From Selaginella moellendorffii (taxonomy: Eukaryota; Plantae; Lycopodiophyta), in contig NW_003314487.1 of assembly GCF_000143415.4 (NCBI RefSeq), positions 1 through 35,277 of the forward strand: a stretch of DNA of 35,277 bases. The letters are read 5' to 3'. Each line of letters starts with the position of its first letter. The stretch's first letter is position 1. This document shows positions 1-24,200 of this stretch, in pieces. The notes under the pieces were generated by a model. That model saw nothing but the letters and a program-made list of their open reading frames with translations, was not told the DNA's origin and ran no database searches. The position numbers and the translations under genes were made by a program.

Positions 1-124
1 TCATCAAGAAAGACATTGTATACCATTCTATAAAATCTAGTTGCGATCTAACGGTTGAATCTCCAGAAAACTCAAAACAATCTCGCGCGTGTCAGAATAT
101 CCTAGGAATATACTCCTATGTGCC

Positions 125-527
125 CCTGAAAATGGCATGCGGCCCCATGCCATTCAAGAGATAACGCCAGATGACGCCGAGAATTTTTTGGTGCATTTTT
201 TGGGTTCAAAATTGCATGAGCCCACATGCTATAAAGTTTATCTTTGCCAAATAGAGAAAAGTTTATCTGTGTCATGTGAGGTAGTTACAGTCTTTTGTGC
301 TCGGCATCTGCCTCTTGCAGCATTTGCACTGAAAGGGAATTTTTCTCCATTCAGCATTTGGTCCTGAAAATGGCATGCACCCATACGCCATTCAAGGAAT
401 AACGCCACAGGACGCCTGGATTTTTGGGTTTAAAATGTTTAGGGTTTATTGGGTTTTTTCAAAATATTTTGGGTCCAACGTTTTTTGGGTTTCTTTGGTT
501 CAAAATTGCATGAGCCCACACGCTATA
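125..527 (+). repeat. Direct duplication upstream of the gene, each unit carrying two palindromes
   Basis: 125-233 (cctgaaaatggcatg...ataacgcca...gacgcc...ttcaaaattgcatgagcccacatgctata) is repeated with a T-rich insertion at 363-527. Confidence 0.8.
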
Positions 528-680
528 ATATTGATTTGAGAGAAAAATAGAAACAGATAGAATTTCTTTATTTAGCTGAACATCTGCCATTTTTGGAAAT
601 ACAAGATGCTTTGGAATATCCAATCATGCATGGTATAAATATAGCGAGGGTATTAAATGATATCCCAATCATGATCTTTC

Positions 681-819
681 TTTTGGATTTCGCGTGCATG
701 CAGTCCGAGGAATGATGACGTTGCGGATTTCTTTTGGATTTTGCGTGCTTGCATGCGCGCGGCAATCCAGAAATTAATGGTGGCGCCCAAGTCCGAGGAA
801 TGATGACGTGGCGGGATTA
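681..819 (+). repeat. Short direct repeats
   Basis: gtccgaggaatgatgacgt at 703-721 and 791-809; cttttggattt..cgtgc at ~680 and ~731. Confidence 0.75.
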
Positions 820-874
820 CCAACCGTTGTGACATTTCGTGCGTGTGAGGTTAGGTTTTGCATTTTGCTTCGTA

Positions 875-1030
875 CTCGCGCTCGCACACTCGCGCTCGCG
901 CTCGCATCACACTCGCGCTCCCGCTCGCATCGCGCTCCCACTCGCGATCACGCTCACTTCTCTACAGGTTTCTCGTGTGCATTGGCTTCCACTCGCGCTT
1001 GCATCACACTCGCGCTCGCATCGCGCTCGT
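875..1030. repeat. CpG-rich (CTCGCG/CTCGCA)n low-complexity tract, probable promoter/5' region
   Basis: Reiterated ctcgcg, ctcgca and cacactcgcgctc units, ~230 bp upstream of the predicted ATG. Confidence 0.7.
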
Positions 1031-2169
1031 GTGCATCGGCGTCCACTTCAAGACACACCCAGTTTGTAACTTCGCCGCCAACTCCGCCGCCCACTCCGCC
1101 ACCCACACGCAGCCCACTTGGCATCCCGGGAGATTTCAGCGCCACTCTCCAACTGTAAGTGGCAGAGTAGCCTTGCTGCTACGATCCGCTGCACACACAG
1201 TGCACATTCGCCAGCGAGTCCGGCCTCGATTGTCACGGCCTCCATCCGGCTTCAAATGGTAAGTCTTTTAGGCCAAGTAGAAAATGGCATGAGGCCACAT
1301 GCCATTCAGTAGCAACATTGGCATGCACCGATTGGGCTCTCGAGTGCAGTCCGGTTACAGATGGCGTGTAGCCTCACGCCATCTTAGGATGCAGCCTCAA
1401 GACATCTGATGCAGTGGTGAATGGCGTGTGGCCTCACGTTATTTCCAGCTACTAGCTTTTCATCTGTCAGCTCTAATTGTTGTGCATTTCTGAACAGGCG
1501 AGGAATTGCGTTCTTCTTCCAACCACTGTCAATGTGGATGTAGAGAAGGGGGAGGAGCTCACCAGCTGGACTTTCGGGATGGAAGGCGAGGATCTGATGC
1601 TATACAACACAGATGGTGGGAGAAAAGAATGCATGGGGATCCTCATCCAAGTGACAGACACTCCATACAGTTCCATGCAAGAATATGGACTGGCACTTAT
1701 GGTAGAGACAGCGTCCGCCTTCAAGATCCACCTTGCACATCCTAGCGGCTTCCCGGAGGGGGGCAGCGGCTATGAGGAATTCCTAAAGGGAGCTAGGGAG
1801 AGGTTGTTCAGAAGGCCCACAATTTCAAAGACGCTGCAAGTCTATGAAGATCACATGGAATCCACGGACCTCACCTACGGTGATGTTCAAAAACTATATT
1901 CCAACATTGAGCCGTTGAGAGTGCCTCCAGTTCGCAAAGCGAAGGGGAAGGGGGTCGATCTGGAAACTACCCCGAAGCAGAAAAGGGTGGTCAAGCTCAA
2001 GCCGACGTCCGACTCTGCTGCTCCAAAAAAGAAGCTACTCGGTGATGCCATTGCCTCGGGTTCGAACACTACACCCACCAAAAGGAAGAGCCGCAAAGAG
2101 CAGAAAGAGCAAGAAGAGGCAGCAAAAATCGTCGCAGATAATAGTACTTGTTACTATTCCAACAAAGTA

Positions 2170-2620
2170 TATACAATCGACGTGAGCCGTATCGACATCC
2201 AAAGCAAATACAACCACAGGCTAGTATCTGATGAGTGGGTGGAGAAACTGAAGCAGAAGATGCTGGCAAGTCCAGTAATACCCGACATCGCAGACGTGAT
2301 CCCCTACTACCAAACAATGAAGGGCGAGACGAGGTTTCCAAACTTGATCAATAGGAAGGTGTTGGACGATCAAAACATCCGGTTCTATGCCGTCTCTGGG
2401 CAGCATTCTAGCTTAGCGATGCAACAGATAGTTGTGGATATTATGGTGGGCAAGGAGGTGAAGAAAGTCTTCAAGACAAGAGTTGTCCGCCTGATAAAAG
2501 GCAACTCGCCCCTCCGATCTATCATATCCATCTCCCACGCGCAGAATGTCAAGCAAGAAACGTGCTACAAATCGGGTTTGCACGAGACATTGGCACGAAC
2601 ACGGAAGCTCTGGGTTCAAC
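2170..2620 (+). other. ParB/Sulfiredoxin-like domain within the spliced gene
   Basis: YTIDVSRIDI...NHRLVSDEWVEKLKQKM...IRFYAVSGQHSSLAM...SISHAQNVKQE...LHETLARTRKLW follows the ParB N-terminal pattern: R..V..L helix, hydrophobic strand + GxH (GxxR box), then a conserved Asn before the next helix. Confidence 0.55.
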
Positions 2621-2787
2621 TGAAGAAGCCACAAAAACCAGGACAAGGACGTGCACTAGCAACTAGCGCCTGGCAGGTAAGCCTCGTTGCATGTGGCATA
2701 GCATGTGGCCTCACGCCATTTCCATTGCAGGAATTCTCGAGTCTTCTCTCGAAAACACTGGGGGTCAATGACACACTCAGCATCCAC

Positions 2788-3067
2788 NNNNNNNNNNNNN
2801 NNNNNNNNNNNNNNNNNNNNNNNNNNNNNNNNNNNNNNNNNNNNNNNNNNNNNNNNNNNNNNNNNNNNNNNNNNNNNNNNNNNNNNNNNNNNNNNNNNNN
2901 NNNNNNNNNNNNNNNNNNNNNNNNNNNNNNNNNNNNNNNNNNNNNNNNNNNNNNNNNNNNNNNNNNNNNNNNNNNNNNNNNNNNNNNNNNNNNNNNNNNN
3001 NNNNNNNNNNNNNNNNNNNNNNNNNNNNNNNNNNNNNNNNNNNNNNNNNNNNNNNNNNNNNNNNNNN
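2788..3067. other. Assembly gap (280 N)
   Basis: Run of N. Confidence 1.
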
Positions 3068-3399
3068 CGCTATTGAAGGATTGGATCTTTGAGCAAGTGG
3101 CCGTGGAGAGGGTGAGCATCGACACCAGGCAAGAGATGATGGAAGAGCTGGACTTGTCAAATGAAGACATCGACGAGTACATGAAGGGGGCCCCTAAGTT
3201 CATCGATCTGCTGCAGGATGCCACGAAAAGTAAAGCCGAGAAGTTGGATCAGTATCCAAATTTCATTAAGAGGGATGTCGACCGCCGGATTCAGAAACAG
3301 CTCGACCCCGCAGCAGAGGCCTATCGAGAACCTTACCGGGTATACGTGAATTCGGATGAGGATCAAAGGTGGAGGAGCATTGTTTCCCGCGGAGATGAG

Positions 3400-4010
3400 C
3401 AGGTCAAGAACATCTTTTGTGTGATGGACTTCACAAACAAGGAGATCACTCATGCAGACGAAGTCAGCTCCATCATTGACTTAATGGTGGGACTTGCAGA
3501 GGTGGAATCTTCAGTCCACTATATGATCTACGACTCCGAATCCTATCACAAGTTCTGGAAGGCCTTGAACGAGGTGAAGGCTCGGTTGAAAGGCAAGGAG
3601 ATGCGGGAGATCCATGGGATAATGGCTAAGAAGAAGATACCGACGAATGTCCGCATCTTCACACTCGCCCTTGTTATTGGTCCTGCAGTAGAGTGGGACT
3701 GGAGTGACTTCCCAGCTTCGTTCAACAAGGCCGATCGAATTGATCTGAGGGAGGTCAATTTACCCGTGCCTGAGGAACTGAAGACGGCTATAGAGCTTTC
3801 GAATCCAAAGAAAGCTCCAGGTGCAGCATGGGAAATGCTTAGCTGGGTCTTCAATGCAATAGCGGGTGACTCCAAGGGCAAATGCGTTGTCGAGTACAAC
3901 TGCGGCGGACTATTCTTTCGAGCCGCACTACTCAAGGGTGTCCCGTGTGTTGCGGTGACAAACTCCATTGAAGAGGTGACTTCAATGGAGCATATAATTA
4001 CAGTTGCCAA
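3400..4010 (+). other. Degenerate beta-class N4C/N6A DNA methyltransferase-like domain
   Basis: NPKKAP..WEMLSWVFNAIAGDSKGKCVVEYNCGGLFFRAALLKGVPCVAV resembles HPTxKP..LL..LI...GDxVLDPFxGSG...AA...GR (motifs X-I-II). The upstream strand IFCVMDFTN lies where D/SPPY (motif IV) would be. Confidence 0.45.
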
Positions 4011-5979
4011 AGAAAAACAGTATCTTCTCTGCGAACCTGGTGAGTACGCACTTTAAGTTTAAATGTTATCTCACAAGCTTTGTATGCAGGAGCGTGGCCA
4101 CCCCCAGATGCTGAAACGGCGTTAACAGCTACTGATGTTAGGCCGAGCTCACTACCTGCACAAGGTAAGGTCACGTGAGGCCTCACGCCATTTTGATTAT
4201 AGATCGTTGTGAATATTCAGACACGAGGACTGAAAAGCGCACTGGTGGCGCGTCGAAGAAGGACAAACAGACAAGCAATAAGAAAAAAGGAGGTACAAAT
4301 CATATTTGCAATGGCGTGTGGTCTCATGCCATTCCTTGCAGGAGACACTTCTTCAAAGGCAAAACAGGCAAGCACCAGTCAAGCTCAAACTGACAGTGGT
4401 CATAAAAAGCAAAAGCACGTTGGACAGTCGTCGGGATCAGAGGCGTTTGATTCGAAAAGGAAGAAGAGCAACGAAAAGATGATAGGTAATGCCTCGCGGT
4501 TATGGCGTGTGTGCTCATGCCATTCATTGCAGATCAAGGGCTGAGTGAAAGGAGCCAGTCACCACCTCCTGACTCAGATTCCTATGGTGGACTCTCCTTC
4601 CCCAATCTCAATGGAGAGGTACAATGGATGAGGGATGCTTTTCAAGTCAGGGCCACGTTTTTCTCATCTCGTCGTCTTCAAAGGGTGCAAGAACGTGCAG
4701 AAACCATGTTAAGACAGTCGGGTGAGGATACGGTCCTAGGTCAAACACTGAAACAGGCTATGGATGTCTTGTATTTTGAGATGGAGACTCGGCCAGATGA
4801 TTTTCCCAAGATGGTCCTGGAAAAACAAGCCATCCAGCCTGAGCAGCCTATGGAAGAAATGTAGGAGGGGGATGAGGAGCCAGAGAAAGATAATGAGCAG
4901 GAAGAGCAGAAGGACGAAGAGGAGGACAAAGAAGAGGAGGACGAAGAAGAGGAGGACGAAGAGGACTTGGATGGTCCTCACAATGGTGACGATCACAATA
5001 ACGACGATGACGATGATGACGACGATGGCCAGCCTGAGGTGGCCAAAGAGCAGCGGAGGAAGGTCATACAAGACAAACCATCAGGTAAATAATAGTACAT
5101 CCATTCCTAACCTTTTACCATTTCTAACATTGTCCATGTAGGTCGCAAAGCAAATGGTAAGTAGAGATTATTCAGTTGAATTAAGATACAAACTCTAGCC
5201 TTTAGTGTCGAGGAAGGATAGTGCCAAGCAAGGGTCAAAACGTATGTCCAATCCTTCAGAATCAGCAGTGCGCCCAATAGCAGTTGATGGTAAATACAGT
5301 ATAGTCGATTCAATGTGCTAATGAGTTTGTTTTTAGTAGCCAGTAGGGAGGATACCATCTCAATCGAAGGGAGATATTTGGACATGCATATGGATCCGCC
5401 AGTGGACTCTACTTGCCTGCAAGAGTCATCAGAGCTGGTGGAGGCTACTATCCATATCAACGCCAAGCAAGCTGACCACGCTCCACTTGATGCTGCCCAT
5501 ACCACTGAGTCAATCTTGTCCACGTATCCAACTGACGGTGACCAGGCGCCATTGGACCCGCATGAGGCCGCCCCAGCCGCCGAGCCGGTCGTATCCTCAT
5601 TTCCAACGGACTCAACGTGTGCCCAATCGTCTGACTACGCGCCGTTGGAACCTCCCTACACCGCCCCTGCTGCCTGTTCGGTCATGTCCACTTTGCCAAC
5701 GGAGGCACCAGCTGAAATGGCGTGTGATCACACGCCATCGGAACCACCCCATGCCACTGTTGAGCCAGTTGTACCAGAGTCTACAGCTGAAATGGCATGT
5801 GCCCACACGCCATCAGATGCGATTGACCCCACATTGCAGAGGAGAGTATTTCTGCCCTTCATGTTTCCTCGACCAAAACCCTCTGAACGACCATCGGGAG
5901 CACCATTCGCTAATATTGCAGATGGTAAAATTGACTTGTACCATTTTTTATGCTGACGCATTTCAGAGTCACGGCGAAA

Positions 5980-6500
5980 GTACTGTATCATTTTTGATCT
6001 AAACGGTGTCCTTTTCTCCCATGAGCGTGGCTCGTCCTCGAATATCACTGCACCCTCTAAAGCCTGCGGTCGCAAGTTGGTCAAAAGAGACAGATTCACA
6101 TTAATCACACGGGAGAAACTGCGGGATCTAATAATGACCATGCGACACTTAAAACAGAGGGCCGGGTTCAATTTGCAATTGGGAGTTTGGACATCCATGA
6201 TGCGCCACAATGCATTAACGTTGCTACATATGATGCATGATCAGACGCGAGTAATATTACCATTTGACTTTCTCCTAACGCAGGAGGATTGCTTGACTAT
6301 GGTCCATGTGAGGGGTAGCAAGCCCATCTTCGTCAAGCCAGAGGCTGTAGTGATGAACCGGACTGCTAGGTCAAGTGAAATCCTCATCATCGATGACTCG
6401 CCGATTAAAACTGCAACGAACACACACACATATGCAGTGCACCCCATCTCTTGCAGTATGGAAACTAGGGAGAAGAAACCGTATGTTCTGGGGGACCTTG
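5980..6500 (+). other. FCP1/NIF-family HAD phosphatase-like domain
   Basis: YCIIFDLNGVL (motif I), LGVWTSMM (motif II), FDFLLTQEDC...KPIFVK, ILIIDDSPIKT (motif IV) and AVHP occur in the expected order and spacing. Confidence 0.75.
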
Positions 6501-7261
6501 CAAAACGGCTTGAAGCGATGGTGATAGAGAACCAGCCAGTCCAGGAGGTGGCTGCAGAAATCAACTAAATGGCAGATGGAACGGTATATCAGAAGCCATT
6601 TGATCGGACAGACACCAGTCATCATTTATGGCATGTATATTGTCTAGCCAAGCACTATCCGCATCTCCATAATCTGCTCAACCGGATGGGTTCTTCGACC
6701 ACTGAACATGAGCGTGGACGTATTAGAGAAGAGATGGCATTACTATTGGGTTTAAATCCTGATAGTGTGGAGAGTGATGAAATTCCAAGATTATTGTATA
6801 GGCGTTGGAGGCAAAAAATAGCAGTCTGAGATGGCATGTATTTATTTAAAAATGTAACTTATTATGGCATGGGTTTCCATGCCATTGTATTAATATTAAA
6901 AGACAATTCTTTGAGAGGATTTGCATTATACTAGAAGTGTTACAGCATGTTATTGGAAGTCTACGAAGTTGTTTTATTAATAAGGGGAAAGTAAAGATTG
7001 AATGGGGACTTGGGCTCCACCTAGACTCGGAGCAACTGAGCCAATATTAAAAGGATGGAAAGAAATTGGATGACGATGACAAGGAGAAGAGAGAGGTGAA
7101 GCAGTGGCAGGGGGAGGAGAAGTGATTGAGTAGACATTTCCTTGTTTAAAATAAAATGGCATGTGCCTCAATGCAGTTGAATTTTGTTATATTTATATAC
7201 TATATAAAGGTTTGGAAACCTTATTTTACAAGTGGGATAATGACAATTCCCACTTTAACGA

Positions 7262-10200
7262 AATAGAGCTTCTTTGAGGTGGACGAATACTGCTTTGCAT
7301 TCAGCTATCTATACCATCTTCTCTTTTCTTGTTTTGTTCGTTAAGGGTAGGGCTACTCTCGAATAGTGTCTGATAAACTTTCGGTAGTCGTTGCATAACC
7401 CCAAGAATGCCCTTAACTCGTGTACATTCGATGGTCGCTCCCAATCCTGGATCGCTTGGACCTTCTCAGGGTCCACCTTGAGCCCGTCTTTGCCCACCAT
7501 ATGCTTGAGAAACTTTACCTCTTGTTGAGCAACGTCACATTTGCTTTCTTTAGCATACAGGTCGTGTTCCCTTAGTTTCTCAAACACCTTCGTTAAGTGT
7601 TTGGCATGCTCCTTTAGTGTTTCACTACAGATTAGGATGTCGTCAATATAGACGACCACAAAGTGATTTAGATACGGTACAAAGATGTGGTTCATTAACG
7701 CCGAAAACATTGCCGACACATTGCATAGCCCGAAGGGCATCACCAGAAACTCAAAGCTCCATACCTTGTTCAACAGGTTGTCTTCTCGACATCTTCCTCT
7801 GCTACCTTGATTTCGTAGTATCCTAACCTTAGGTCAATCCTCGAGAAGTATTTTGCCTTTCCCAACCTATCGAACAGCTCCTCAATCCTTGGCAAAGGGT
7901 ACTCGTTCTTCTTTGTATACTTGTTGAGCAACCAATAGTCTATACACATGTACATAGATCCATCTTTTTTTTCACAAATAACACCAGCGCCCCATATAAC
8001 GACTTGCTCAACTTAACATACCCTTTGTCCACCAACTCCTTTAGTTGGTGCTTGAGTTACTCAAGTTCTTTTTCATTCAAACGATAGGGGGGACGAACCA
8101 CCACCTCAACACCCTCGACTAGCTCAATTTTATGTTCTATCGGTCGTGCGGGGGGCAACCCGCCAGTAACTCCTCTGGCATGGTATCCTGGAATTGGTCT
8201 AACACTCGTTGGATCACTAAAGGTACTTCTTCCGTTCCCGCCTTTTTGTCATTCTTCACTGAGAGTAAGCACAAAAATGCTGCTTTGGTTCCTTTAGTGA
8301 GTTGTCCTCTCGTGGACACCAAGTTCAGGCAGGAATTTTTAGCCTTGCATTGCCCTACCTTTAGATCCTGGGCCTCCACCCTGGATCTTCTTCCTTAGGC
8401 ATTCGCTAGTACCATAAGGTTCCTACCTTGTCCATGCAGGGCTATCACGAACCGATTGAACCAATCCATCCTGAAGATCACGTCAAATCCCACCATATCC
8501 AATACAGTGAAATCCATTTCTACTTTCCATGTCCCTACTTCGACTCTCGCTTGTCGAAGTACCTCATCAATGCTTTGGCTACCTTGAACAAACTCTATAG
8601 TCCTTGGTTCACCCAGCCGTTGCACTATTAATTCGGCTTGTTGGACTATTTTTGCAGCCATAAAATTATTCGAAGCACTCGTGTCAATAAGGATCTTAAC
8701 AAAGCTACCTCCGAGCTTCCCTTGGAGGGCTAGTAGATGTCACGAACGACTCTCTACCAAAGTTGCTCGTGTAATGAGTAACTTTGAGCTAGGGATTGGA
8801 TTACATACCTCAGTTTAGATTTCAACCAACTTAATGGCCATATTAGTTCTGGCCTTCTTCGGGTAGGGACATTCCCTCTAAAAGTGTCCCGCTTCACCAT
8901 AGTTGTAGCATATGTTGCTTCCCATACTGCTAACCAATTTAACCTTCTTATCTGTGGGTTTGTCTCTTTTGGCTTGACTCCTCTACGTACTTGCTCGTTG
9001 GCCACCGCATTTGCCTTTCGGGAACCCCGAGGACTCATTCTTAGAGAAATTCTTCTTGAATTTCCTTTTGCTATATGTTCCCCTTGGTTTGGCCCCTTTG
9101 CTAAACGTGGACCCCGACCCTGTTGTGTTCCCCTTTCACAGGTTATCGTTGAAATGCACCTTGATGGCCGCATCCAACGCTTCCTTGTAGTTGGTTGGGT
9201 TTCAACGCATCACCTCACTGCAAGCCCAGGTTTGCAAGCTTGATATGAAGGCATGAAACGCATCCATATCCCCCATGTCCGTGACAAGTATCCTCTTTGC
9301 CATAAACCCATTCACATACTCCTGAATGGTTCCGATCTGTTTCAACCTACTTAGCTCATCTCTTAGATGCAGAGAAGAATTCGGAGGAATGTAAGTCGCA
9401 CAGATCCTCACCTTCATCATTTCCCAAGTAGCCATCGGTCCTTCGTTGGCCTCTGTCATTCTCCACCAAGACTTGGCATTATCTACCAAGTATGGTTTTG
9501 CACATAGGACCTTCTCCAAGCTCGATAACTGCAACACTTGGAAGTAGTCCTCTATATCGTAAAACCAATCCTCCACCACCTTATAGTCGTTCACTCCCTT
9601 GAAGACTAGTGGGGGCTTTAGTTTGTATTTGAGAATTGCCTAAGGGACTGATTCCACTTCGGTCTATTCGACCTTGTCTATTTTTGCCTCAGTTCCTGCC
9701 CAAGGGTCCACACCTTCTGCACTGCCAGCCTCCACAGTCTGTTGCCTTTTCTTTCGCTTCTCATCACGCTTTAGCTTGTGTACAAGGGTTTCCAACAGGG
9801 CATTGGTCTATGCCAATTATCCTTCTAGAACATCCAATTGAGCCTTGGACGACCAAACCTCACCACCAGACTCCTGTTTGGAAGTTTCCTCACTAGAGGA
9901 TTCCTTATCCGAGGATTCCTCATCCATAGCCTCTTGTTCGACCGAAGGCTCCAGCTCTGGAGGAGGTTCCGTCTCCGCCTTGGTTCGTTTTCACCCTACC
10001 TTTGCCATCTCCCAGCAATCTGCCTCTATCCTTTGTTAGAATTGAGGAAAATGCTCCGATACCAAATTGTAAGCCTCAAATTTTTCCTTTCCAATTTGCT
10101 AGCTTACCTCGTCTATCCGACCAACACTCCCTTGGTTTTTGCTAAGTTCCTTCGCCAAGGTTCCCGTCTATTGTACCAGCTCCTACTTGGTCCTACTTGG

Positions 10201-10985
10201 TTTCAAGTACTCACTGCACGAGCAATGGAGCATTAGCCATCCATCCATGGATTCCCAAATCTCTACCAATCCCCCTCCCCAGGTTAGACTGGGCTTAAGG
10301 TTCAGCTATGCTCCCTACAGGCACAAGCAGCCAAGCACACTAAACCCCTAGGTTCCTAACATCCCTTGGTACAACTAGACTTGATCATGGGACCCTCTAA
10401 ATCCCAAACCTTGGGTGCAACACTTGCTTCAGGACACTGGGGCAAAACACCGTGGCCTAACAGCTTGGTATAGGTACCTCTACCCCTCCACTTCCATCCT
10501 GAAGTGAAGGCCCAAGCCCCTAGAAAGGGCAAGGACCGATGAGCCACAAGGTACTCAAGTGGGGCACCACTCCACATAAGTCGGGAGCACCGCAATCGGT
10601 TTCCCTTTTGAGAGTGGGAGTTGCTTTTGAGCACTTCCTTGAGTGGCCCTTCCGACACCACCCGAGTCCATGCTCACTCCCCGGCCCCAGTCTCAACCTC
10701 AAGCTAGTTTGGAAGCACCACTGGAGAGTTCCTTCAAGACTGGTTCCTGGACCTCACTATCCCTACTATACTTTTGGAACCCCCCTGGGAGATACACGCT
10801 TTGGGCTTTTACCCCTTGACTTGACCTGTATTAGTACTCGGACTCGATCTCAAACTCGATCTCGGACCTGACTTTGGACTTAGTCTTGGACTCGATCCCA
10901 TGGTCCCATCCGATGAACTCTTTGTCATTTTGGTCATGCTTTCGGGGATCCTTTAGCCTATGACACCTCGGGGAGTTGGTTCCTT
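7262..10985 (-). mobile_element. Ty3/gypsy LTR retrotransposon A, 3'-truncated and decayed (5' LTR, PBS, gag, protease, RT)
   Basis: PBS TGGTATCGGAGC (- strand, 10053-10064) next to an LTR edge at 10068. gag WFYDIEDYF...AKSWW (9202-9594), decayed zinc knuckle ~8870-8915, protease LIDTSASNNF ~8670-8700, RT MCIDY..LNK..YPLPRI and VMPFGLCN...YIDDIL (7309-7955). Stops and frameshifts; no RNase H or integrase. Confidence 0.9.
10068..10985 (-). repeat. 5' LTR (partial) of element A
   Basis: Starts TGTAAG next to the PBS and contains the shared core ctatccctactatacttttggaacccccc...gctttgggcttt (10757-10815). Right boundary approximate, at the junction with the next gag fragment. Confidence 0.65.
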
Positions 10986-10988
10986 ACA

Positions 10989-11566
10989 CCAGTCTTCCAA
11001 AACCTGATAGTCCCGCATGCCTTTGAAGTTGGGTGGTTTCAGAGGCTTGAACTTTGAAACTTGTGCAACCGAGGGCGGTTGCAGAACTTCATCATCCTTA
11101 GAACTTAAAGAGGAGTCTGGTTACTTAAGCTTAGCTAGTTTAGCTACCTCAACATCTTTCTTCCTCTTCTTGTTCTCCTTCTTCAATTTCCGAATCTCCC
11201 TTCATAAATTCTCAATCTCAACTTCCTGAGCCGTACGCTACAACGCTGTAGCATCTGGCTCTTCCTCTTCTAACTCAGCCTTACCCTCTTCTGCAGCATC
11301 TCTAGCAAGAGTTTCCTCCTCTCAATTTGCCCGTCTAGATGTTTCAGCATCATCAACACAGTTCATTTTTACCATCCCGCTAGCTACATGCATGTCTCTA
11401 TCAGTAACTGAACATGCTTACAACATTCTTACCAAATGGTGCAATCCAATTAATCCTACATAGGTCGCTTCGGTTCTACTAGAAAAGTCTCTACATATGC
11501 AACTTGAGTTAGAAAATCCAACACAAGTTGGATAGGAATCGCTAAGACAATTCTTGTGATACCAAA
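10989..11566 (-). mobile_element. PBS + leader + 5' gag fragment of a second copy of family B, attached to element B's 3' LTR
   Basis: Collinear with 17422-17999, including PBS TGGTATCAC (11556-11564) and KFKPLKPPNF.GMRDYQVLEDW. Truncated at ~10989. Confidence 0.9.
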
Positions 11567-12492
11567 TGTAGTGCATCTGAATTTGGAGCCGAACTCCAAG
11601 CCTATTGCACTACAAAACGAGGGTCTGGTACAATCCCACGAGCACCAGCTCCCTGTATCCAGCACCTACATGCAAAATGGTGTTAGCAAAGTCTAGCACA
11701 ATTGTGGCATATTGGTGGCCTAACGTGAGGAGGAGGGTACCCCACCAACTAGAGTAGTGTGGAGCTTGGGCTTAGACCAAAGCTGGACACAGAACAAGGA
11801 GCGACACAGCCCAGCGGGAGCCAAATTAATATTTCAGATGGTTGGACATGCAATCCAACCACTATCCCTACTATACATTTGGAACCCCCCATAGCTCCCC
11901 CCCCCCCCCTTGAGGGACACATGCTTTAGGCTTTCACCCCAAGCCTCCCTTAGTACCAGAAGTTAATCTCTGGGACAAGTCCGAAACTTACCAAATAGGG
12001 AATGGCGTTAGATTGCGAATTTAGACACGGGACAAACACCATTATGTTCAGGCTAATCTCTACATTCCGTAGATATCCTAAATGAGTGGATCTAGACACT
12101 TTCCATAAATAGCATTTGGGACCGAAATGAGACTAACACAAATGGCATGATAGCGAGGGTGTTTGGCAGACATGGTAAACTATCATCTAGCAAATATTGA
12201 GGAACTAGTCTCAAAATCGCGGGGGTTCCCAACACTAGCAAGTGCAAGTCAGTATCATGAGTTTCTCGTCACCGTGTGAAGTATGCTTGACTTAATGACA
12301 ACTTAGGATTTCCTTCCTTAGTGCCCTTAAGATCTAAGTGCACATGTGCTTACCAGTTTCTCAACTAGCTTGGGTGGAGACCATAAAGGGAACCAGCAGT
12401 ATTGACCTCCTGCCGTCGTGGCAATAAGGAGAGAGTGTCCGTAAGGACTAGCTGACAAGTATCTTTCAATACCCAAAGTCACATTCGCAACA
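11567..12492 (-). repeat. 3' LTR of element B, also serving as 5' LTR of the adjacent truncated copy
   Basis: TGTAG...CGCAACA termini, PPT on one side and PBS on the other; homologous to 18000-18929. Confidence 0.92.
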
Positions 12493-13102
12493 CTCTCCCC
12501 CCCTTGGGGAAGATCAACATCCTCGTTGATGCATACCCAAGTCTAGCAAACCGTCAAGGAAACAACTCCAAAAGTTCACAGAAAGCACACTATATGGGAA
12601 ACACACTGACTTAAATGATTTATGGAACGACCTCTCTTCTATGTCCAAAGACGTTAAGACTCAGACACCCTTCAGCCGTCACCGACAAGGAAATTACTAA
12701 TGGAGTTAGCCACCCTTGCTGCTCTGAGTACCACTCGGCTTACAAAGGAATGATACATCCCTGCCCACAGGGATATAGGGAGAAGGCTAGAGACCCAACT
12801 TCCCCTGAGCAAGAAATCAACCCCGTCAGGAAGATTTAGACAAGTATTATAAATTGGCAGATTAAGTTGTTTACACCACCACACCCCTTTTTCCAAAAGT
12901 GAGTCATCGAGAGAGAGGTGAGGAGTTGTGATCAGTCTATAATAGGTATCTCCATGGTTATGGATTGGACCCATGGACCGAACTGTCGAAGTCAGCCTGC
13001 CAAAACTGACCCAAGTACTAACGAGCGAGAGAAATGACACTTTAATTTATAGAAATATATTACTGTATTAAGTTGCAAGATTAATTACAAGGTTTACAAA
13101 AG

Positions 13103-16100
13103 CTATTTTTTATTACGATTCTCATACTCTGTGACAAGCTCAGAAGCACATATAAGATTCCTAAGAGGTTCCCAAGTTGATTCACAAGATGGGTAACCTT
13201 TCCACTTAACTAGATATTCCTTCACACGACCACCACGTGCCTTACAAGACAAAAGGATAGCCTCAACTTCATACTCTAATTCACCATCAATAACATTCGG
13301 AGCTGGATGAACATCCCTAGAGCGGCCAAGATCCTCATGATATGGGGCCAGTAAACTGACATGAAACACATCATGAAGTCTAGACATCTCTTGTGGAATA
13401 TCCTACTGATAGGATACATCACCAAGTCGTTTCAACACTTGATAGGGTCCAATATATCTTGGTAATAATTTCCGAGATAAAGATCCCTTAATGTTCAAGT
13501 TCTAGGAAGATAGCCACACCGGATCTCCCACATGATAGGATACATCCTAACGATGCTGATCCTTATCACGTCGATACCTATCCTGAGCTTTGCCCATCGC
13601 CTCAGTAGCTCTAAACCAACCTTGGCGTAGCTGCTCCGCATAAGTCTCAATGGCCGGGACCAACACTTCAGACATTGGTTTTGGTACAACAATCTGTTGA
13701 GGAACCCCACGAGCATTACCTTGCAGCATCTCTCATGGAGAACAGCCTATAGCGCTATGAAATGTGTTTTTATAACAGATTTCTGCTATAGCAAAATGCT
13801 CAACCCAGTCACGTTCGTCCACCGCAACATAGTACCGCAGATAATCTTCAACTTGAGCATTCACACGTTCGGTCTACCCATCAATCTGAGGATGATAAGT
13901 GGTACTAAACTTCAACTTGGTACCAAAAAACTGAAATAGGGTGCCCCAAAACTTCCCCGTAAACCTCAAATCTCTATCTGAAATCATCTCTTCAAGAAGA
14001 CCATGAACCTATACTACTTCATGGAAGAAGAGCTTTGCTGCTTATTTTGCATTCACTGTTCCCACAGTTGGAATGAAGTGTGCAATCTTCCACAACCCAT
14101 CCACAACCACCATGAAAGTATCATAACCCTTAGACTTTAGCAAGAAAGTGATGAAATCAAGTGTCACACTCTGAAATGGCCATGCCGGTGCTGGAATGCA
14201 CTGCAACTTCCAAGCCTGCTTCTCAGCTCTACACTTACATTGCTGGCATATAGGGCAGGAATGAACATAATCCGCTACATCACCTTCCATACTAGACCAG
14301 AAAAATCACTTTTTCAATGAAGCTAGAGTCTTTCACTTTCCACCATATCCCGCTGCTGGAACATCATGATGTTCCCATAGAAACAACTGTTGCAGATCCT
14401 TAGAGGGAAGATACAATCTTTCTTGCTTATAGAATATAAGCCTATCCCGAACTGAGAAGTGAAGCTTCACATTGGTGTGGTTAGCAACTTTTGCTGCCTC
14501 GCTACCAGAGTTCTGCTTCAACAACTCCGCAGGGTGTAAGATTGCCTTCGCCAACAGATCACTTCTATACGAAGCCCGAACATCCTCCAACCAGTCCGAA
14601 CTGATTGCTAATATTGCTCGAAATTGAGCCTGATAACTCAACACATCCGGAATAATATTGTCTTTACCAGGTTTATATATGATTTCAATGTCATATCTAG
14701 CGAGCTTCTCTTGCCAACGAGCCTGCTTTGGCGTAAGCTTAGGCTGCATAACAAAGTAGCTCAGTGTGTTACTATTTGTATAAACCTTGGTATGTCCACC
14801 CAAGTAGTGTCTCCAATGTTCCAGGGCTGACACTATAGCAAACATCTCTTTCTCATGCGTTGGCCATCTTCATTGAGTTTCATCCAATTTCTTGGAATAG
14901 AATGCAATGGGACAACCATGTCGTCTTAGCGTAAAACCAACTGCTTTGTCACAATCTTGCTCCAACACAGCACTAATAGCATAGCCAGATGCATCACAAT
15001 ACACTTTGAAGGGTTTATCAAGATCTAGGATCCCGAGAACAGGAACCGTAGTCAAGGTCTCCTTCAACCATATAAAAGCACGCTAACAAGCCAGTATCTA
15101 CAGAAACGGAATACTACTCTTTGTCAACTCAGTCAACGGAAGAGCAATTCTTACAAAATTGCAGACAAACTTACGATAGTATCCCGCCAAACCGAGAAAG
15201 GAACGAACATCTGATACAGTGGTTGGGACTTCCCAGAACTTCACCGCTTCCACCTTCTTTGGATCGACCTCAATCATGCCACCACCAACTATATGTCCGA
15301 GAAAGTTTACGCACAATTGACCAAAAGCGCATTTACTTTCCTTAGCATACAGTTTGTGTTCGTGCAACTTCTGAAACACCAGCTCCAAGTGTTTCAAATG
15401 ATTCTCCAACGTTTCACTAAAGACTAGAACATCATCGATATACAGGACAACAAATACATCCAAATAATCTCCAAATATTCTATCCATCATAGTGCTGAAC
15501 GTTGCCAGAACATTGTATGACCCGAACAGCATGACAAGGAACTCATAAGATCCATACCGAGTGTTAAAGGTTGTCTTCTCCACATCTTGATCTGCCACCC
15601 GTATCTGATGATACTTGGACCACAAATCAAGTCGCATGAAATACTTAACCTTTAAGAGTTGGTCAAACAAGTCATCAATGCGTGGCAAAGGATAATTGTT
15701 TTTAACCGTGATTTTGTTGAGTGCCCGATAGTCAATACACATCCTCATGGTTCCATCCTTTTTCATAACAAAAAGGACCGGTGCTCCATAAGGTGACTTG
15801 CTTGGTCGGATATAACCTTTGTCAAGAAGCTCCGTGAGTTGCTTCTTGAGTTCAGCCATCTCCTTGATGTTCAATCGATATGGAGCTTTTGTAGGTGGTT
15901 TAAAACCCGGAATAATCTCAATCTGATGATCAACCTCACGGCTAGGAGGTAGCCCTAGTGAAAAATCCTTCAGGAAGATATCCTGATTCCTCGCCAACAA
16001 CTCCAATATCTTCTTTGGTACAGCATCAACCCCGTTGTTGATTCAAACTGAGTCACCAACACTCTCAGCTTCCATCACTTGAACCCAAAATGTCCAACAT

Positions 16101-17826
16101 CCCTTCTTAGCTGCTTTTTGAGCGGCTCACAGTTAGGAATTTAGCATCCCAATCCTTTGAGGAGCGCTTTTGCAACTAGAAGGACACATCAGGACATCCT
16201 TCTGACTTCAATGTGATACGACTTTATCCAACACTGTAAATCCCTTTAATATATTTGTTGAATAAGTCTATACATCTAAAAATCTGGTATCTTTAACACT
16301 ACCAAGTCCACTCTTTTTTTCCACTTGGATATTTTTATTAGAACATCACTCACAAACTTTCTGGCTACTTGCCCACCTTCCACAAACCAGAAGTGCATAA
16401 GTGACATTTGCTTAGCATTCAATCCTAACAACTTAACTAAGTTTTTGCGGATATCATGTTGTGCATAACTCCCGTGTCAATCATTACTCGGATTTGGTGT
16501 CCATGGACAAAGCCTATTAGATACATCAACGGATCAGTTTTTGCATTGACTGCAAGAAAAGTTTGAGGAAAGTAACAAAAGTCACTCACCTCTTCTTCCT
16601 CATAGGCTGCATTGACCAACTCGTCAACCCCTTCAGCTTCACCACCACCATCTTCCCTCATGACATTAACACAAGACCTTGTCTTATGCTTGTTGGAACA
16701 TTCCAAAGACCTATGTCCTAACTCTCCACAATGGAAGCAATGACCCACACTACCCGTTCTGCTAGGAGTAGGTTTTGCAGGTTGCTGCTGCTTGTACCCA
16801 CCAGGAGGAGGAACAGAAGGCCTAGGACCAGAAGAAGCTACTAGTGGTCTCTAACCACCACCACCTTTGTTAACTGTTGCTTGTGAGCCCTCAAAGTGGA
16901 ACCTGCCTTCCACCCTCTGTTTCCGATCACCTTGTTTATTCCCAAAAATTTTATTCTTGTCCAAGGTACCAGCATACGGATGCTAATATTGTTCCATGAG
17001 TGAGTGACTAAAGGCAACTTGCTGCGCTGCCTCCTTACACTCCAGGTACGTCTTCGGCTTAAACTTCAAAATCTCATTACGAGAAAGTGAAATTAAACCC
17101 TCCAGGAAATAACTCCGAGCATCTTTGTCACTCATATTTGCAATCATAATGCACTTCTACAAATGCATTAACATAATGCATGAGATCCCCTTGTTTCTTT
17201 AACTACCGCAGCTCCGCGTGAACTCTCAAACCGAGATCATCCGGCAAGTATTCCTTACGGATACAAGACCACATCTTGGTCCAACTTCTAGTCTGCTCTT
17301 TTTCAGCACACACTTGGCACCACCAAGTTTTGGCATGCTCGGTGAGAAAGGATTGCACGCATGCAACTTTCGTACGATCATCTACGTCTACCGCTATGAA
17401 ATAATTTTCCATATCGTAGACCCAGTCTTCCAAAACCTGATAGTCCCGCATGCCTCTGAAGTTGGGTGGTTTCAGAGGCTTGAACTTTGAAACTCGTGCA
17501 ACTGGGGGCAATTGCAAAACTTCATCATCCTCAGATCTTGAAGAGGAGTCCAGTTGCTTAGGCTTAGCTGGTTTACCTGCCTCATCTTCTTTCTTCCTCT
17601 TTTTGTTCTCCTTCTTCAATTTGCGAATCTCCCTTCGCAAATTCTCAATCTCAACTTCCTGAGCTGTATATTGCAACGCTGTAGCATCTGGCTCTTCCTT
17701 TTTTGACTCGGCCTTAGCCTCTTCTGCAGCATCTCTAGCAGGAGTTTCCTCCTCTCGATTCGCCCGTCTAGAGGTTTTAGCATCATCAGCACGGTTCCTT
17801 TTTACCATCCCGCTAGCTACATGCAT
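13103..17826 (-). pseudogene. gag-pol polyprotein of element B (gag-PR-RT-RH-INT-chromodomain), fragmented
   Basis: Ordered ORF fragments carry the motifs listed for element B. RT-RH-INT order is diagnostic of Ty3/gypsy. Confidence 0.93.
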
Positions 17827-17999
17827 GTCGCTATCAGTAACTGAACATGCTTACAATGTTTTTACTGAATAGTGCAATCCAACTAATCCTACATAGGTCG
17901 CTTTGGATCCATTAGAAAAGTCTCTGCGTATGCAAATTGAGTCAGAAAATCAGACACAAGTTGGATAGGAATCGCCGAGACAATTCCTGTGATACCAAA

Positions 18000-18929
18000 T
18001 GTAGCGCACCTAAATTTTGAGTTGAACTCCAATTTTGAGCAGCACTACGAAATGAGGGTCTAGTACAATCCCAGGAGCACCAGCTCTCCGTATCTAGCAC
18101 CTACACACAAAATGGTGTCAGACGAAGTCTAGCACAATTTTGGCATACTGGTGGCCTAACGTGAGGAGGAGGGTACCCCACCAACTAGAGCAGCATGGAG
18201 CTTGGGCTTAGACTCAAGCTAGACGCAGAAAAAGGAGCGACACAGCCCACAGCCTAGCAGGAGCCAAACTAATATTTCAAGTGGTCGGACATGCAATCCA
18301 ACCACTATCCCTACTATACATTTGGAACCCCCCACAGCTCCCCCCCCCCTTGAGGGACATATGCTTTAGGCTTTCACCCCAAGCCTCCCTTAGTACCAAA
18401 AGTTAATCTCTGGGACAAGTCCGAAACTTACCAAATAGGGAATGGCGTTAGATTGCGAATTTGGACACGGGACAAACACCATTATGTTCAGGCTAATCTC
18501 TACATTCCGTAGATATCCTAAATGAGTGGATCTAGACACTTTCCATAAATAGCATTTGGGACCGAAATGAGACTAACATAAATGGTATGATAGCGAGGGT
18601 GTTTGGCAGACACGGTAAGCTATCATCTAGCAAATATTGAGGGATTAGTCTCAATATCGCGGGGGTTCCCAACACTAGCAAGTGCAAGTCAGCATCATGA
18701 GTTTCTCATCACCATGTCAAGTATGTTTGACTTAATGACAACTTAGGATTTCCTTCCTTGGTGCCCTTCTGGTTTAAGTGCACATGTGTTGATCAGTTTC
18801 TCAACTAGCTTGGGTGGAGACCATAAAGGGAACCAGCAGTACCGACCTCCTGCCGTCGTAACAATAAGGAGAGAGTGTCTGTAAAGACTACCCGACAAGT
18901 ATCTTTTGCTACCCAAAGTCATATTCGCA
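18000..18929 (-). repeat. 5' LTR of element B
   Basis: Begins TGTAG next to the PBS and ends ...attcgca, lacking the final ACA seen in the other LTR. Confidence 0.92.
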
Positions 18930-19329
18930 TTGATAATGGAAGGCCAAAATATAAAAGAAGTAGGGATAGGGCTTGAGTGCTAACTCACCCTATTATCTAG
19001 TTCTACATGGTGGCATCTGTCACTTCTTCCTGTTCCTGAATCTCAAGATTGGAGTCTTGAGATGATGCTCCTAAATGGAAGGTTGATTTCCTATGCTCTA
19101 CTTTTCTCCCACAACTAAGTTGAGCTTCTCTCACTGCACTATGGCATTGGACTGCTTTGTAGCTGCTGCAGCTCTAGAAAGCTTGTCCTTGTACTTGCCA
19201 AGTTTCGACTAGAAGCATCATCATTGTGATTGCTCCTGAGTTTCTGCTGGAACTCATTGTCATCCTCCATCACAATTGGTGGCTGTTTTACCTTGAGCTG
19301 TTGGATCTCATTGTGAAGCTTAGCATTCT
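18927..19329. repeat. ~400-bp direct duplicate of 29787-30189
   Basis: gcattgatRatggaaggccaaaatataaaagaagtaggg...ctcattgtgaagct is collinear at offset 10860 with scattered substitutions. Confidence 0.93.
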
Positions 19330-20235: not shown

Positions 20236-21222
20236 ACATAAAATCCCAAAGTGGAGCCAAAAGGGTGCCACATGGTAGTGGCCAAAGCAAAAGCCAAATG
20301 AGCATAACATGTTTGAACTGAAAGCTCCAACTTGAAAGGTTGAGAACGGGAGTGGAAGTCCCAACAAAATGCTCAAGGAACAAGCACAAAGCAAGCAATA
20401 AGTGAGTCTCTAGAAAAGGGACACAAGAGGACCAACACATGACCCGAGATGGAGTCCAAGATGGACCCGAGATGGAGTCTGGGATGGACCTGAGATGGAG
20501 TCCGGGATGGACCCGAGATGGAGTCCGAGATGGACCCAAGATGGAATCCGAGATGGAATCCGAGATGGACTTGAGATGGAGTTCGAGATGGAGTCTGAGA
20601 TGGACCCAAGATGGACCCGAGATGGACCCGAGATGGAGTCCGAGATGGACCCGAGATGGAGTCCGAGATGGACCCAAGATGGAGTTCGAGATGGACCTGA
20701 GATGGAGTCCGAGATGGACCCGAGATGGAATCTGAGATGGACCCGAGATGGAGTCCAAGATGGACCCGAGATGGAGTCCAAGATGGAGTCCAAGATGGAG
20801 TCCAAGATGGAGTCCGAGATGGAACCGAGACCGAGACTGAGACCAAGACCGAGATCGAGATCGAGTCCGAGTCCGAAACCGGGACTGAGACCGAGTCCGA
20901 GTCTAAGTTTGAGTTTGAGTCCGAGTTCGAATACTAATACAGGCTGTTGGGTGAAAGCCCAAAGCAATCATCCCCCAAGGGGGGGTGGGGCTGCGGGGGT
21001 TCCAAAAGTATAGTAGGGAGAGTGTGGGAGTTGAAGCCTAGTTTGGCTAGTTTGGCCAATTTGGCCCAAAAAGGCCATACCCATTGTTGGGTGATGAGCT
21101 AACCACTGGGAAGTCCAAGACTAGAGTGAATACAGACCGACAAGTAGGGTAGTTTGGTGAAGTGTTCAAGAGCTGGCTCTAGTTCCCCCGGGAAATCAAA
21201 TAGTCGGTGCTCCCAGTCCAAA
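20236..21222 (+). mobile_element. LTR fragment C (related to element A's LTR) containing a minisatellite, interrupted by element D
   Basis: 20900-21025 is the reverse complement of 10757-10870 (tactaatacagg, aaagcccaaagc, gggggttccaaaagtatagtaggga). Left boundary approximate. Confidence 0.6.
20441..20930. repeat. Minisatellite of 11/12-nt units (CCGAGATGGAC / CCGAGATGGAGT) grading into 6-nt CCGAGA/CCGAGT units
   Basis: Directly visible tandem array. Confidence 0.95.
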
Positions 21223-24200
21223 TGTCACGAATGTAACTTCGGGTATCGAAAGTTAACTATCGGCCACTCCTTTTGTACACTCTTTCCTTATTGCCACGAT
21301 GGTAGGAGGTCAGCATTGCTGGACCCTTTATCAGCCCCTCTTGTTCAAGTGTTAGTAAATTGGACTTTGCATCTGTATTTGGCTGGATGAGCATAAGGAT
21401 GGAATTCCTAAGTGTCTATTTAGCCAAGCATACTCGGCCTGGCTTTTTAATTCTCTTTTGCTTTGTTTTGCACTGGCTTGACAAGAACCCTCGCGTATTG
21501 AGACTAGTCCCTCAATATTGCTGGATGATAGCTTACTATGTCTGCCAAACACTCTCACTATCATGCCTTTTGTGTTAGTCTCATTTAAGTCCCAAATGCT
21601 ATTTATAAAAAGTGTCCAGATTTACTCATTTAGCATATCTATGGAATGTAGAGATTGGCCTGAACATAATGGTGTTTGTCCCATGTCCAAATTCACAATC
21701 TAATGCCATTCCATATTTAGTAAGTTTCAAGCTTATCCCAAAGACTAACTCTTGATACTAAGGGAGGCTTGGGGTGAAAGCCCAAAGCATGTGTTCTTCA
21801 AGGAGGGGGGGGATATAGGGGGTTCCAAATGTATAGTAAGGATAGTGGATAGGTCGGGCATGGCCGACGAACCTAAAATATAGTCTAGCTTCTGCTTGCA
21901 TGCCTGTCCTTGTTTTGCATCCGGCTTGGGTCTATGCCCAAGTTCCACTCCATGTTAGCTGGTGGAGTACTTATGTCTTTGCGTTAGGCCACCAGTATGC
22001 CGAAATAGCACTAAATTTCGTTTGGCTCTGTTTTGTGTGCTGGTCCTAGCATTGGGATGTTGGTTGCTCTAGGACTGTTCCAAGTTGCTCCGGGCTCCTA
22101 TCCCTTTGCTTTTTGGGCTATATGATTGGGAGTTGCTCCATGGTCCGGTATTGTCACTCCTTGGCTCCATGCTTGGGAGTTTGGCACCGTTCCCTTGTTC
22201 AGTGGCCCAAGACCCTGAACCTCAGATTCCACACCATTGTCATATGGACATGTGGCATGTATCACATGGCATAAAGAGGGTTTAGGTTCTGCTTCGTGGT
22301 GTTATCCTATGGTAAAACACCATAGGATAAAGGGTAAAAACCATGTGTGCTACATTTGGTATCAGAGAATGAGTCTCAGCAAGTACTATTCAATGAAATT
22401 GGGCAACTAATCTCGTTGCATATGCAAAGATGAAAACAATGATCTGAGTGGTTACACATTTGGGTGCAAAGGCTTCGCAATCGTTCCTTGGGTATGGATA
22501 CCTTTTTATACCATTTTACACGAGTTTGCACTTGGGCTCGTGAGTGAGGCGCATTAGCAACTCAAGGTTACACTTTGAGTTGGCAAGGTTAATGTTAGCC
22601 TATCAGTGGTTCCATGAGTTATTCCATGTACCATGAGTGAAAGTAAACCTTCCCTGGGTTTGCTATGAGTGGCAAATAGACTGATCCGTAGCTGTTTAGC
22701 ACGGCACTAATAGATCCTTCTAGGCATGGTTACAAGTGGATCAATCAAGACTGTAGGGATGAGTTTATTGATTCAAGTAATTGTTGCCATGCTCTCTCAT
22801 AAACTTTTCTTAGATTGGACTGAAGGTAGTGCGAAAGCAAGCTTGAGGTTTAGCTAAACATGAGACCGAAAAGAGAGTCGTCGGGGACGAAAGATCAAAC
22901 ACGTAAATCATTTTCTCTTTTGAAGAAATGATTTGCAACGAGATGTGACTCATTGCTCATATTCACATTATGCAATCAAGAGTCCCTACTTTGATGGATG
23001 TTGGAAATGATAGTCTTACAAGTGGTGAGTTATGGGATGGATAGCGGTGAAGCGCTAAACCATTTTGTCTAGGCTTGCTATTGAAGACTTGAGTTACAAT
23101 GCTCAATTCTTTTCTAGGAAACCTTGCTATTGCTCCTTAAGTAGCTTGGTGTTGAATTAGTTTTGAGTTTGGTCGGAAAGTGAGTGGCATGAACTTGTCC
23201 ATGTTGTGAACAAAAGTTAGTGATGTTGGGTGTTGTAAGTCTCTATTGGTAGAGTGTGGCATTTATGTTGCATTTTGTCGAATCGAGTTGACACTTGATA
23301 TTCATGTAAACCTTTGTAGTAGTGACATGGGCGTTGCTTGTAGTGTTTCTCAATTGATGATCAAGGCATTGTGATACTTATATCATATCCATGTGATAAT
23401 GAGGAATGTGTTTACGAAGTTGCTTGGTTAAACGATGATCAACCCCAATGTGGTTGATGGTGAAGCTAGTCTACCTACACGAAGTAGCATTGTAGTAGCT
23501 TTGACTGGATTCTTGATGGTGGTCCATTATGTTAAGCTTAAGTTGGTTTCTTGTTTCCTTGAGTTTGCATATAAAGTGTTAGAAAAGGGTTATAGCATTC
23601 ATTTTCTATGGCTTATCAGTTGATCTGTTAACACTTGGAGTAGATTGTTGGATGGAGAAGGTGTGTAGTTGAGGCATTGATATCGCTATCACTTGTGTTA
23701 GTGGAAGTGGCATTGTTATTTCAAGTGATGAGGAAGTTTTCCTTAGAGCTTGATTTTCCATGTCATTTTTCTTGTTAGTGTTTTGGCTTCACATTGGATC
23801 TTGAAGGTGGTTGAAGAAGAGTGTTAGTGCAATGTGGATGTCCGAAGATATGGTCTTTGTGATCAAGCCTTGGATGTTTATTTTGCATTTTTCGGATGTC
23901 AGTGTTAAATGTCGAAAAATGGGCAAAGATATTTGATGCTTAATCATGCTATTGGGTCTTGAGAATTTGTGTTGAGGTGAAACTATGTGAAGCTGTTAGT
24001 AGGAGAAAGTTGGATGAGTCTTGAAAGTTTGCAATCCTGGACTAAAAGTCATTCTTTCTCTAGGATGGAAAATTTTCCACAAATTTTCCCAATAGCTGAT
24101 CTATTGATCACTTTGTTCAAAAACCATTCTATTTTCGTAAGTTAGTACAAACTAGTGAAGGGGTTGGAGTTGACTTAGGTTAGCTTAAACCTTAGTAGGT

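Follow-up and report, generated by a model that had tools for sequence, protein, structure and literature searches.

A palindrome array confined to a DNA transposon of Selaginella moellendorffii surrounds a gene predicted to encode a ParB-fold accessory protein

The window analysed in this work is a stretch of 35,277 nt from Selaginella moellendorffii (contig NW_003314487.1, positions 1-35,277, forward strand; assembly GCF_000143415.4), whose first 7.3 kb are the right-hand part of a highly repeated DNA transposon with a predicted accessory gene for a protein containing a ParB-type domain. Fifteen copies of a palindrome lie in and around that gene. We hold with moderate confidence that the element's own ParB-fold protein docks at these sites and would in this way mark the copies of its family. 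The array, the element end, the fold and the conserved order of the protein domains are the established parts of this picture. Speaking for it are the confinement of the array to the element, a symmetric constraint on the two half-sites of the palindrome, and the occurrence of a palindrome directly inside a second type of element terminus.

When the whole window was scanned with the pattern AATGGCRTG-N6-CAYGCCATT, 14 matches were obtained at up to three mismatches, every one of them within 131-7178, against a mean chance expectation of 0.03; the number 14 was reached in none of 100 shuffles. A fifteenth copy, with four mismatches, is located at 4169. A weight matrix built from the 15 copies gave them scores of 21.0-37.4, which are high partly by construction, whereas the best other site in the window (at 28621) scored 8.2. 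The preliminary description of this DNA, which had placed the array around the gene and nowhere else, was thus borne out, with nothing comparable in the remaining 28 kb. It had also stated that the spacer is constant in length and free in sequence. The first part held, since all 15 palindromes have a 6-nt spacer and scans with spacers of 3-5 and 7-9 nt gave a single match at up to three mismatches, overlapping the 4169 copy. The second part did not, as 13 of the 15 copies have G at spacer position 11 and 13 have C at position 14 (spacer consensus WGSCCW). Because the spacer itself is conserved, and with a palindromic bias, the unit is a palindrome of about 24 bp, AATGGCRTG-WGSCCW-CAYGCCATT. 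Some copies are local duplicates (131/369 and 210/504, and 5716/5791 as judged by common flanks), and the number of independent palindromes is therefore about 11-12. Conversely, 15 is a lower bound on the number of copies, because the element continues past the left edge of the window.

Under the predicted gene model, and in agreement with the split claimed previously, four copies are upstream, seven intronic, two coding and two downstream. The upstream copies (131, 210, 369 and 504) belong to a duplicated unit at 118-560 (repeat families D16 and D17). Three others (1283, 1360 and 1420; 1283-1443) are placed in predicted intron 1 by the pattern scan and gene model, and four very short introns hold one copy each, namely 2697-2720 in the 54-nt intron 2677-2730, where the palindrome ends 10 nt short of the 3' splice site, 4169-4192 in the 38-nt intron 4165-4202, 4310-4333 in the 49-nt intron 4293-4341, and 4501-4524 in the 47-nt intron 4486-4532. 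The coding copies (5716 and 5791; 5716-5814) are found in a low-complexity exon and the downstream, subterminal ones (6863 and 7155; 6863-7178) are again positioned by scan and gene model; none of these palindrome features is assigned a strand. Non-coding copies thus make up 13 of the 15 (p = 4e-5 relative to the share of length). Contig comparison showed the arms of the 6863 and 7155 palindromes to be unchanged across the family, the sole difference, at 6874, falling in the spacer. Searches for the motif elsewhere revealed no clusters: there are at least 119 metagenome loci, of which, among the matches listed, 118 have a single copy and one has two (39 of the listed loci are short), and four viral and three prokaryote loci have one copy each, the prokaryote pattern being narrower. 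We read all of these as chance matches.

The half-sites vary in a restricted way. Position 6 is C in 30 of the 30 half-sites, and position 7 is either A (16 half-sites) or G (14); the TG form never occurs. Neutral decay of methylated CpG yields CA and TG equally. Since no TG form is seen although CpG decay should give both, the same constraint must act on both strands.

Contig depth over the element (1-7271, plus strand) is even from position 1 to about 7270 and falls at 7271/7272 in three runs; as cover is even from the first base, the left end of the element lies outside the window. Public contigs from three organisms hold the element stretch, and 14 very small runs of one sample carry 0.60-0.61 of its words, as expected of a high-copy repeat. 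In run X1, 37,861 contigs align on 8.2 kb, and the summed contig depth, which is not a copy number, drops from 799,861 (7240-7267) to 21,582 (7296-7323). The same drop was observed in X5 (258 to 45) and X9 (309 to 139). Contigs of the element end at 7269-7272 and continue into unrelated flanks (X1 and X5), and contigs of the neighbouring Ty3/gypsy sequence start aligning at 7272-7274. The right terminus (7230-7271, plus strand; last base somewhere in 7269-7271) is an approximately 40-bp terminal inverted repeat (TIR) with a GTGGGA..TCCCAC hairpin. One X5 contig (record 12) contains the terminal sequence twice in opposite orientations, about 225 nt apart, as in a short derivative. Contigs of X1 and X9 share the sequence from 7230 onward and have a different interior, in which a palindrome immediately adjoins the inverted repeat on its inner side.

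Judging by the sharp right end in many copies and the terminus in both orientations, the element is a TIR DNA transposon inserted in the reverse transcriptase region of a decayed Ty3/gypsy retrotransposon (7272-10200, minus strand; Pfam RVT_1 and Retrotrans_gag), whose frame breaks at the junction. The right flank starts with T (consensus flanks TAA/TAT; TCT in the window copy), and this T-initial flank and the terminus may resemble those of PIF/Harbinger. A TTTAGGG repeat at a contig joint, the chromodomain gypsy elements nearby and the liverwort homologues of the protein point to a plant host. A Helitron reading of the right end, prompted by the hairpin, was ruled out by the lack of a CTRR end and by the inverted occurrence of the terminus, and the possibility that the gene is cargo of the gypsy element was ruled out by depth and contig ends, which part the two at 7271/7272. 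The proposed location in a mobile element is therefore supported by the sharp end at 7270/7271, the inverted terminus and the many copies. A virus-derived origin, also put forward earlier, finds no support in the part of the element inside the window: neither relatives nor motif clusters were found in viral contigs, and the terminus is of transposon type. In searches for homologous loci in contigs, 0 of 82 metagenome, 0 of 19 viral and 0 of 48 prokaryote pattern matches were confirmed, and PHROG returned no match under E 0.05.

The accessory gene is predicted to have 11 exons (1256-6568, plus strand; ATG at 1256, TAA at 6566), with splice sites deduced from sequence only. Its ten introns are GT-AG, nine of them 38-57 nt long, and the model contains 1,633 codons in frame, with stops at 4862 (TAG) and 6566 (TAA), for a predicted protein of about 1,550 aa. 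The TAG at 4862 is a premature stop in the window copy. An assembly gap of 280 nt (2788-3067) lies inside the gene. Position 6566 shows no difference in the four runs covering it, so the TAA is probably the family state. Directly after this stop, an 86-codon frame (6569-6829) follows in frame (TAA-ATG) and stays open to 6829; it has no Pfam or PHROG match and could reflect read-through or re-initiation, an intron missed by the model, or an old extension. Several homologous open reading frames (ORFs) of other samples stop near 2676/2677 (W-Q/W-K-V), a common ending that suggests a conserved intron after the ParB-like domain. Contigs of run X20, guessed to be RNA and not used here, extend unspliced into predicted introns. 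Upstream of the gene is a CpG-rich, low-complexity CTCGCG/CGCTCG tract (860-1100) whose length differs between copies; the CpG observed/expected ratio upstream of the gene is 1.1, versus 0.43-0.63 outside the element.

The ParB/Srx-fold N-domain (2161-2568, plus strand) contains a GQHSxxA motif at 2398 and was modelled with a predicted local distance difference test score (pLDDT) of 83. The model matched Noc in Foldseek (E 1.5e-4) and superimposed on Myxococcus ParB-CDP (7bnk) with Z 11.4 and a root-mean-square deviation of 1.9 A over 95 residues. Similarity was higher to ParB, Noc and KorB (Z 9-11.4) than to sulfiredoxin (Z 6.2-7.6), and the ParB-type fold claimed at the outset thus finds support in the predicted structure. 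Atlas clusters for 2158-2676 include ParB_N at 0.93 (a name borne by 35% of the cluster members) and fungal DUF3723 at 0.95 (78%). Besides DUF3723 (Ascomycota), unnamed sponge and mollusc clusters scored 0.95; a literature search found no paper treating DUF3723 and ParB together. Sequence searches of Pfam, PHROG, NCBIfam and PDB did not recognise the region, and word-index protein searches gave no relatives of the window protein. HMMER against 1.84 billion representatives returned 17 matches, 16 of which constitute one family with an invariant G-Q-H-x-x-x-A, its named members being liverwort proteins of Riccia and Calypogeia. The remaining match, P0001 (a yeast repeat protein), was dropped as spurious, as it aligned outside the ParB region; the other 16 were aligned. 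In addition, an N-terminal beta-rich region of about 130 aa (1498-1900) is loosely common to P0002, P0003, P0006 and P0011 and is a candidate second DNA- or chromatin-binding module.

Bacterial ParB proteins are characterized by the CTP motifs GxxRxxA and EN(I/L)QRE (PMC11229316). In a register inferred from pattern and secondary structure rather than from residue-level superposition, the GxxRxxA place reads G-Q-H-[S/T/L]-x-x-A in each of the 17 family sequences, the arginine being replaced by Ser, Thr or Leu, and only the Asn of EN(I/L)QRE is kept, in 16 of 17. Since the CTP arginine is missing throughout, the ParB-fold protein is, on its sequence, not a ParABS member. No ParA was found among the scanned window ORFs, the left arm of the element being outside the window. 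The ParB/parS-like system raised before is not supported as a true ParB CTPase partition system.

Downstream of the ParB-like region is a degenerate, permuted N6/N4-methyltransferase-like domain (3325-3996, plus strand; Atlas lead PF01555 at 0.89), collinear with the PF01555-matching region of the Riccia protein P0025. The catalytic motif of N6A/N4C methyltransferases is (D/N/S)PP(Y/F). The window protein has DFTN at this DPPY place and EYNCGG at the place of the S-adenosylmethionine loop, and P0025 has DLTH at the aligned catalytic place, so that an active methyltransferase is not supported. The region has no Pfam match, its single-sequence fold model is unconfident (pLDDT 39), and its alignment with P0025 is borderline (score 86, shuffle maximum 85). 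The Riccia sorocarpa protein R1sor_025532 (KAL3675584.1) matches PF01555 at E 5.8e-4, under the curated cut-off. Indirect evidence, that is, the Atlas lead and the collinearity with R1sor_025532, thus points to a methyltransferase-like middle domain. The C-terminal NIF/FCP1-like domain of the haloacid dehalogenase phosphatase type (5981-6427, plus strand; motifs DLNGV and IDDS) is matched by Pfam PF03031 (E 8.5e-6; 26 bits, gathering score 21.8). Phosphatase activity is uncertain because the first motif is DxN instead of DxD, and the alignment of the NIF regions of the window protein and P0025 is not significant (score reached in 41 of 500 shuffles). R1sor_025532 has the same order of ParB-like, PF01555-like and NIF domains, so that the three-domain arrangement described for the window gene is sustained, with a degenerate methyltransferase part.

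If the palindromes are docking sites, a dimer of the accessory protein would read the two symmetric half-sites of the 24-bp unit, and the ParB-type domains would join the subunits, perhaps in a nucleotide-gated manner and without the canonical CTP arginine. The protein would then coat copies of its own transposon family and bring the methyltransferase-like and phosphatase-like domains to them, and the element would be kept expressed or able to jump, as VANC does for VANDAL. The sites would gather where coding capacity is not spent, and in the four tiny introns one sequence would serve both DNA binding and splicing. The dimer, the binding, the nucleotide gating and the chromatin effect are thus what we infer.

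Several points weigh against this interpretation. In addition to the loss of the CTP arginine, the N-domain of bacterial ParB is a nucleotide and dimer module, not the reader of parS, and the place where a helix-turn-helix would be expected is in or beside the 280-nt gap. A different DNA-binding protein may be encoded in the left arm, outside the window. Furthermore, the CpG observed/expected ratio is 0.57 within 60 nt of the palindromes and 0.80 elsewhere in the element, and at 123 of the 202 places over 1-8200 where the window copy differs from its X1 relatives it reads G for A or C for T. The lower CpG near the sites and the transition-rich differences give no sign of local methylation protection.

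The alternative that survives best, and which we still consider unlikely, is that the palindromes bind another protein of the element, such as a transposase or a TnpA/Myb-type partner encoded in the left arm, and build a transposition complex, the ParB-fold gene being a bystander. CACTA and Harbinger elements usually have subterminal protein sites, a point for which our literature search found no paper. Copies do lie close inside the terminus (7155, and the one abutting the inverted repeat in the other terminus type), and the left arm, a possible source of such a protein, is outside the window. However, the predicted gene contains 9 of the 15 copies, at distances of up to 6 kb from the right end, whereas a transposase would be expected to have its sites at the termini, and the pairing of a ParB-like gene with inverted repeats is described as recurring in an unrelated, red-algal transposon superfamily.

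The intronic copies raise a second alternative, in which the palindromes act as RNA hairpins that regulate splicing by hiding the branch points of very short introns. Six of the seven intronic copies have a spacer ending in CT and hence spell CTCAY, compared with 0 of the 8 other copies (Fisher p = 0.0014). In the four motif-bearing micro-introns (38-54 nt), this CTCAY is the sole CTNAY word and is 15-17 nt from the 3' end; 4 of the 5 motif-free short introns have a CTNAY of their own, 10-16 nt from the 3' end. Because it is the only such word, at a matching distance, the palindrome in these micro-introns likely doubles as branch point. The four introns fold at -7.5 to -16.2 kcal/mol, a point in favour of hairpins. 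The pattern of variation, however, would disrupt pairing. In the predicted transcript the U.G change tolerated by a stem occurs in 0 of the 15 copies, and the stem-breaking A.C change in 4 of the 15; G.U is found at the R/Y pair in two copies. A.C mismatches had been pointed out at 369, 2697 and 5791, correctly so, but 504 has one as well. Together with the symmetric constraint on the half-sites, in particular the C at position 6, these counts favour a symmetric dimer that recognises duplex DNA, as had been surmised. Moreover, a hairpin needs no fixed spacer length, at least 6 of the 15 palindromes belong to neither the predicted coding region nor an intron, the motif is missing from 5 of the 9 short introns (themselves predictions), and an Rfam search gave no match. 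We regard control by hairpins as improbable.

Lower still is the probability that the element acquired the sites so as to be expressed through a host transcription factor, for which dimeric NAC- or TCP-like proteins are candidates. The non-coding placement, biased to promoter and introns, and the CpG-rich upstream region would suit this explanation, but the other 28 kb, consisting of further repeats and host DNA, hold no comparable site, for factors of this kind a palindrome of 24 bp would be long, and copies are present at the element terminus too. Finally, we give hardly any credence to the idea that local duplication and the copying of introns in a young element left the palindromes behind as a neutral side effect. 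Three pairs of copies are indeed local duplicates, and the last 10-17 nt are alike in three motif introns, but the flanks differ while the arms are fixed, with C6/G19 kept in all 30 half-sites despite the mutability of CpG.

The concept of a self-binding transposon protein is already in print for red and brown algae. The accessory protein of Ectocarpus Sola1-1_Ec32 combines ParB-like and N4C/N6A methyltransferase domains, and a class of self-modifying accessory proteins has been proposed (PMC12477816). It resembles the Selaginella protein in belonging to a DNA transposon, in its domains and in the proposal that it binds and modifies its own element, but it comes from a brown alga, the main text mentions no palindromes, no phosphatase is named there, and the methyltransferase motifs are degenerate in the window protein. 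The red-algal Plavaka protein PAG3 is likewise ParB-like, with inverted-repeat arrays beside its gene and the same self-binding hypothesis (10.1101/2025.02.11.637652). It differs in being fused to a 2-oxoglutarate oxygenase, with a separate methylase (PAG2), and in having tandem arrays adjoining the gene instead of intron-dispersed sites. According to that source, no transposon other than VANDAL is known to bind its own sequence and modify it. In Arabidopsis, the motifs bound by VANC21 lie in the introns and termini of VANDAL21 elements, its own family (PMC5735166). In common with the present case, a protein of a plant transposon goes with family-specific motifs located in introns as well as in intergenic and terminal regions; unlike here, the motifs are short, same-orientation YAGTATTAY words in tandem repeats, binding and demethylation have been demonstrated, and the available text reports no relation to ParB. 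Bacterial ParB, Noc and KorB with parS, NBS and OB sites (7bnk, 6sdk, 7ol9, 8qa8) share the N-domain fold and the clustered palindromes near or in the gene, and differ in the CTP motifs (no ParA being found, moreover, among the window ORFs scanned) and in lacking introns and fusions to enzyme-like domains such as those of the Selaginella gene. R1sor_025532 and other uncharacterised liverwort proteins belong to the same family with the same domain order (26% identity over 250 columns of the ParB-like region), and are known here from protein sequence alone. Chlorophytes and chytrids are described as having ParB-type helix-turn-helix methyltransferase fusions, and land plants as having few N6A methyltransferases (PMC4738411).

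By its features, as opposed to sequence homology, the window element fits the proposed algal class, with a ParB-like gene in a DNA transposon, a fused domain of DNA-modifying type and inverted repeats. Literature searches revealed no land-plant ParB-like transposon gene among the matches listed. The locus thus extends to land plants a pattern proposed in algae as a second self-binding class, adds a phosphatase-like fusion conserved in liverworts and sites doubling as branch-point-like words, and offers a precisely defined candidate site on which binding could be tested directly. A bolder proposal, which we put forward tentatively and with considerable doubt, is that land-plant transposons run a bacterial-style site-and-clamp system, in which a ParB-derived dimer would load at the 24-bp palindromes, spread, and deliver enzyme-like chromatin effectors, the sites being fused to micro-intron branch points so that loss of a site would mean loss of splicing. 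Were binding and spreading true, the ParB clamp would here have been reused in a eukaryote, and it might serve as a sequence-specific epigenome tool.

The rest of the window holds other repeats and host DNA. Nested decayed Ty3/gypsy elements occupy 7272-19329 on the minus strand, including a chromodomain gypsy (13103-13402, Pfam Chromo) between 1.5-kb direct repeats that are 90% alike (10989-12489 and 17422-18929). Scattered short ORFs at 29975-33416 (minus strand) have no significant Pfam match and are possible exons of a decayed gene or a host gene. A tandem array of 11/12/23-nt units (CCGAGATGGA-type) at 20418-20870 adjoins an LTR-like (long terminal repeat-like) piece, and a 5.5-kb fold-back (22519-28071) is situated among LTR-like repeats, its arms (22519-24766 and 25815-28071) being about 80% complementary with approximately 1 kb between them.

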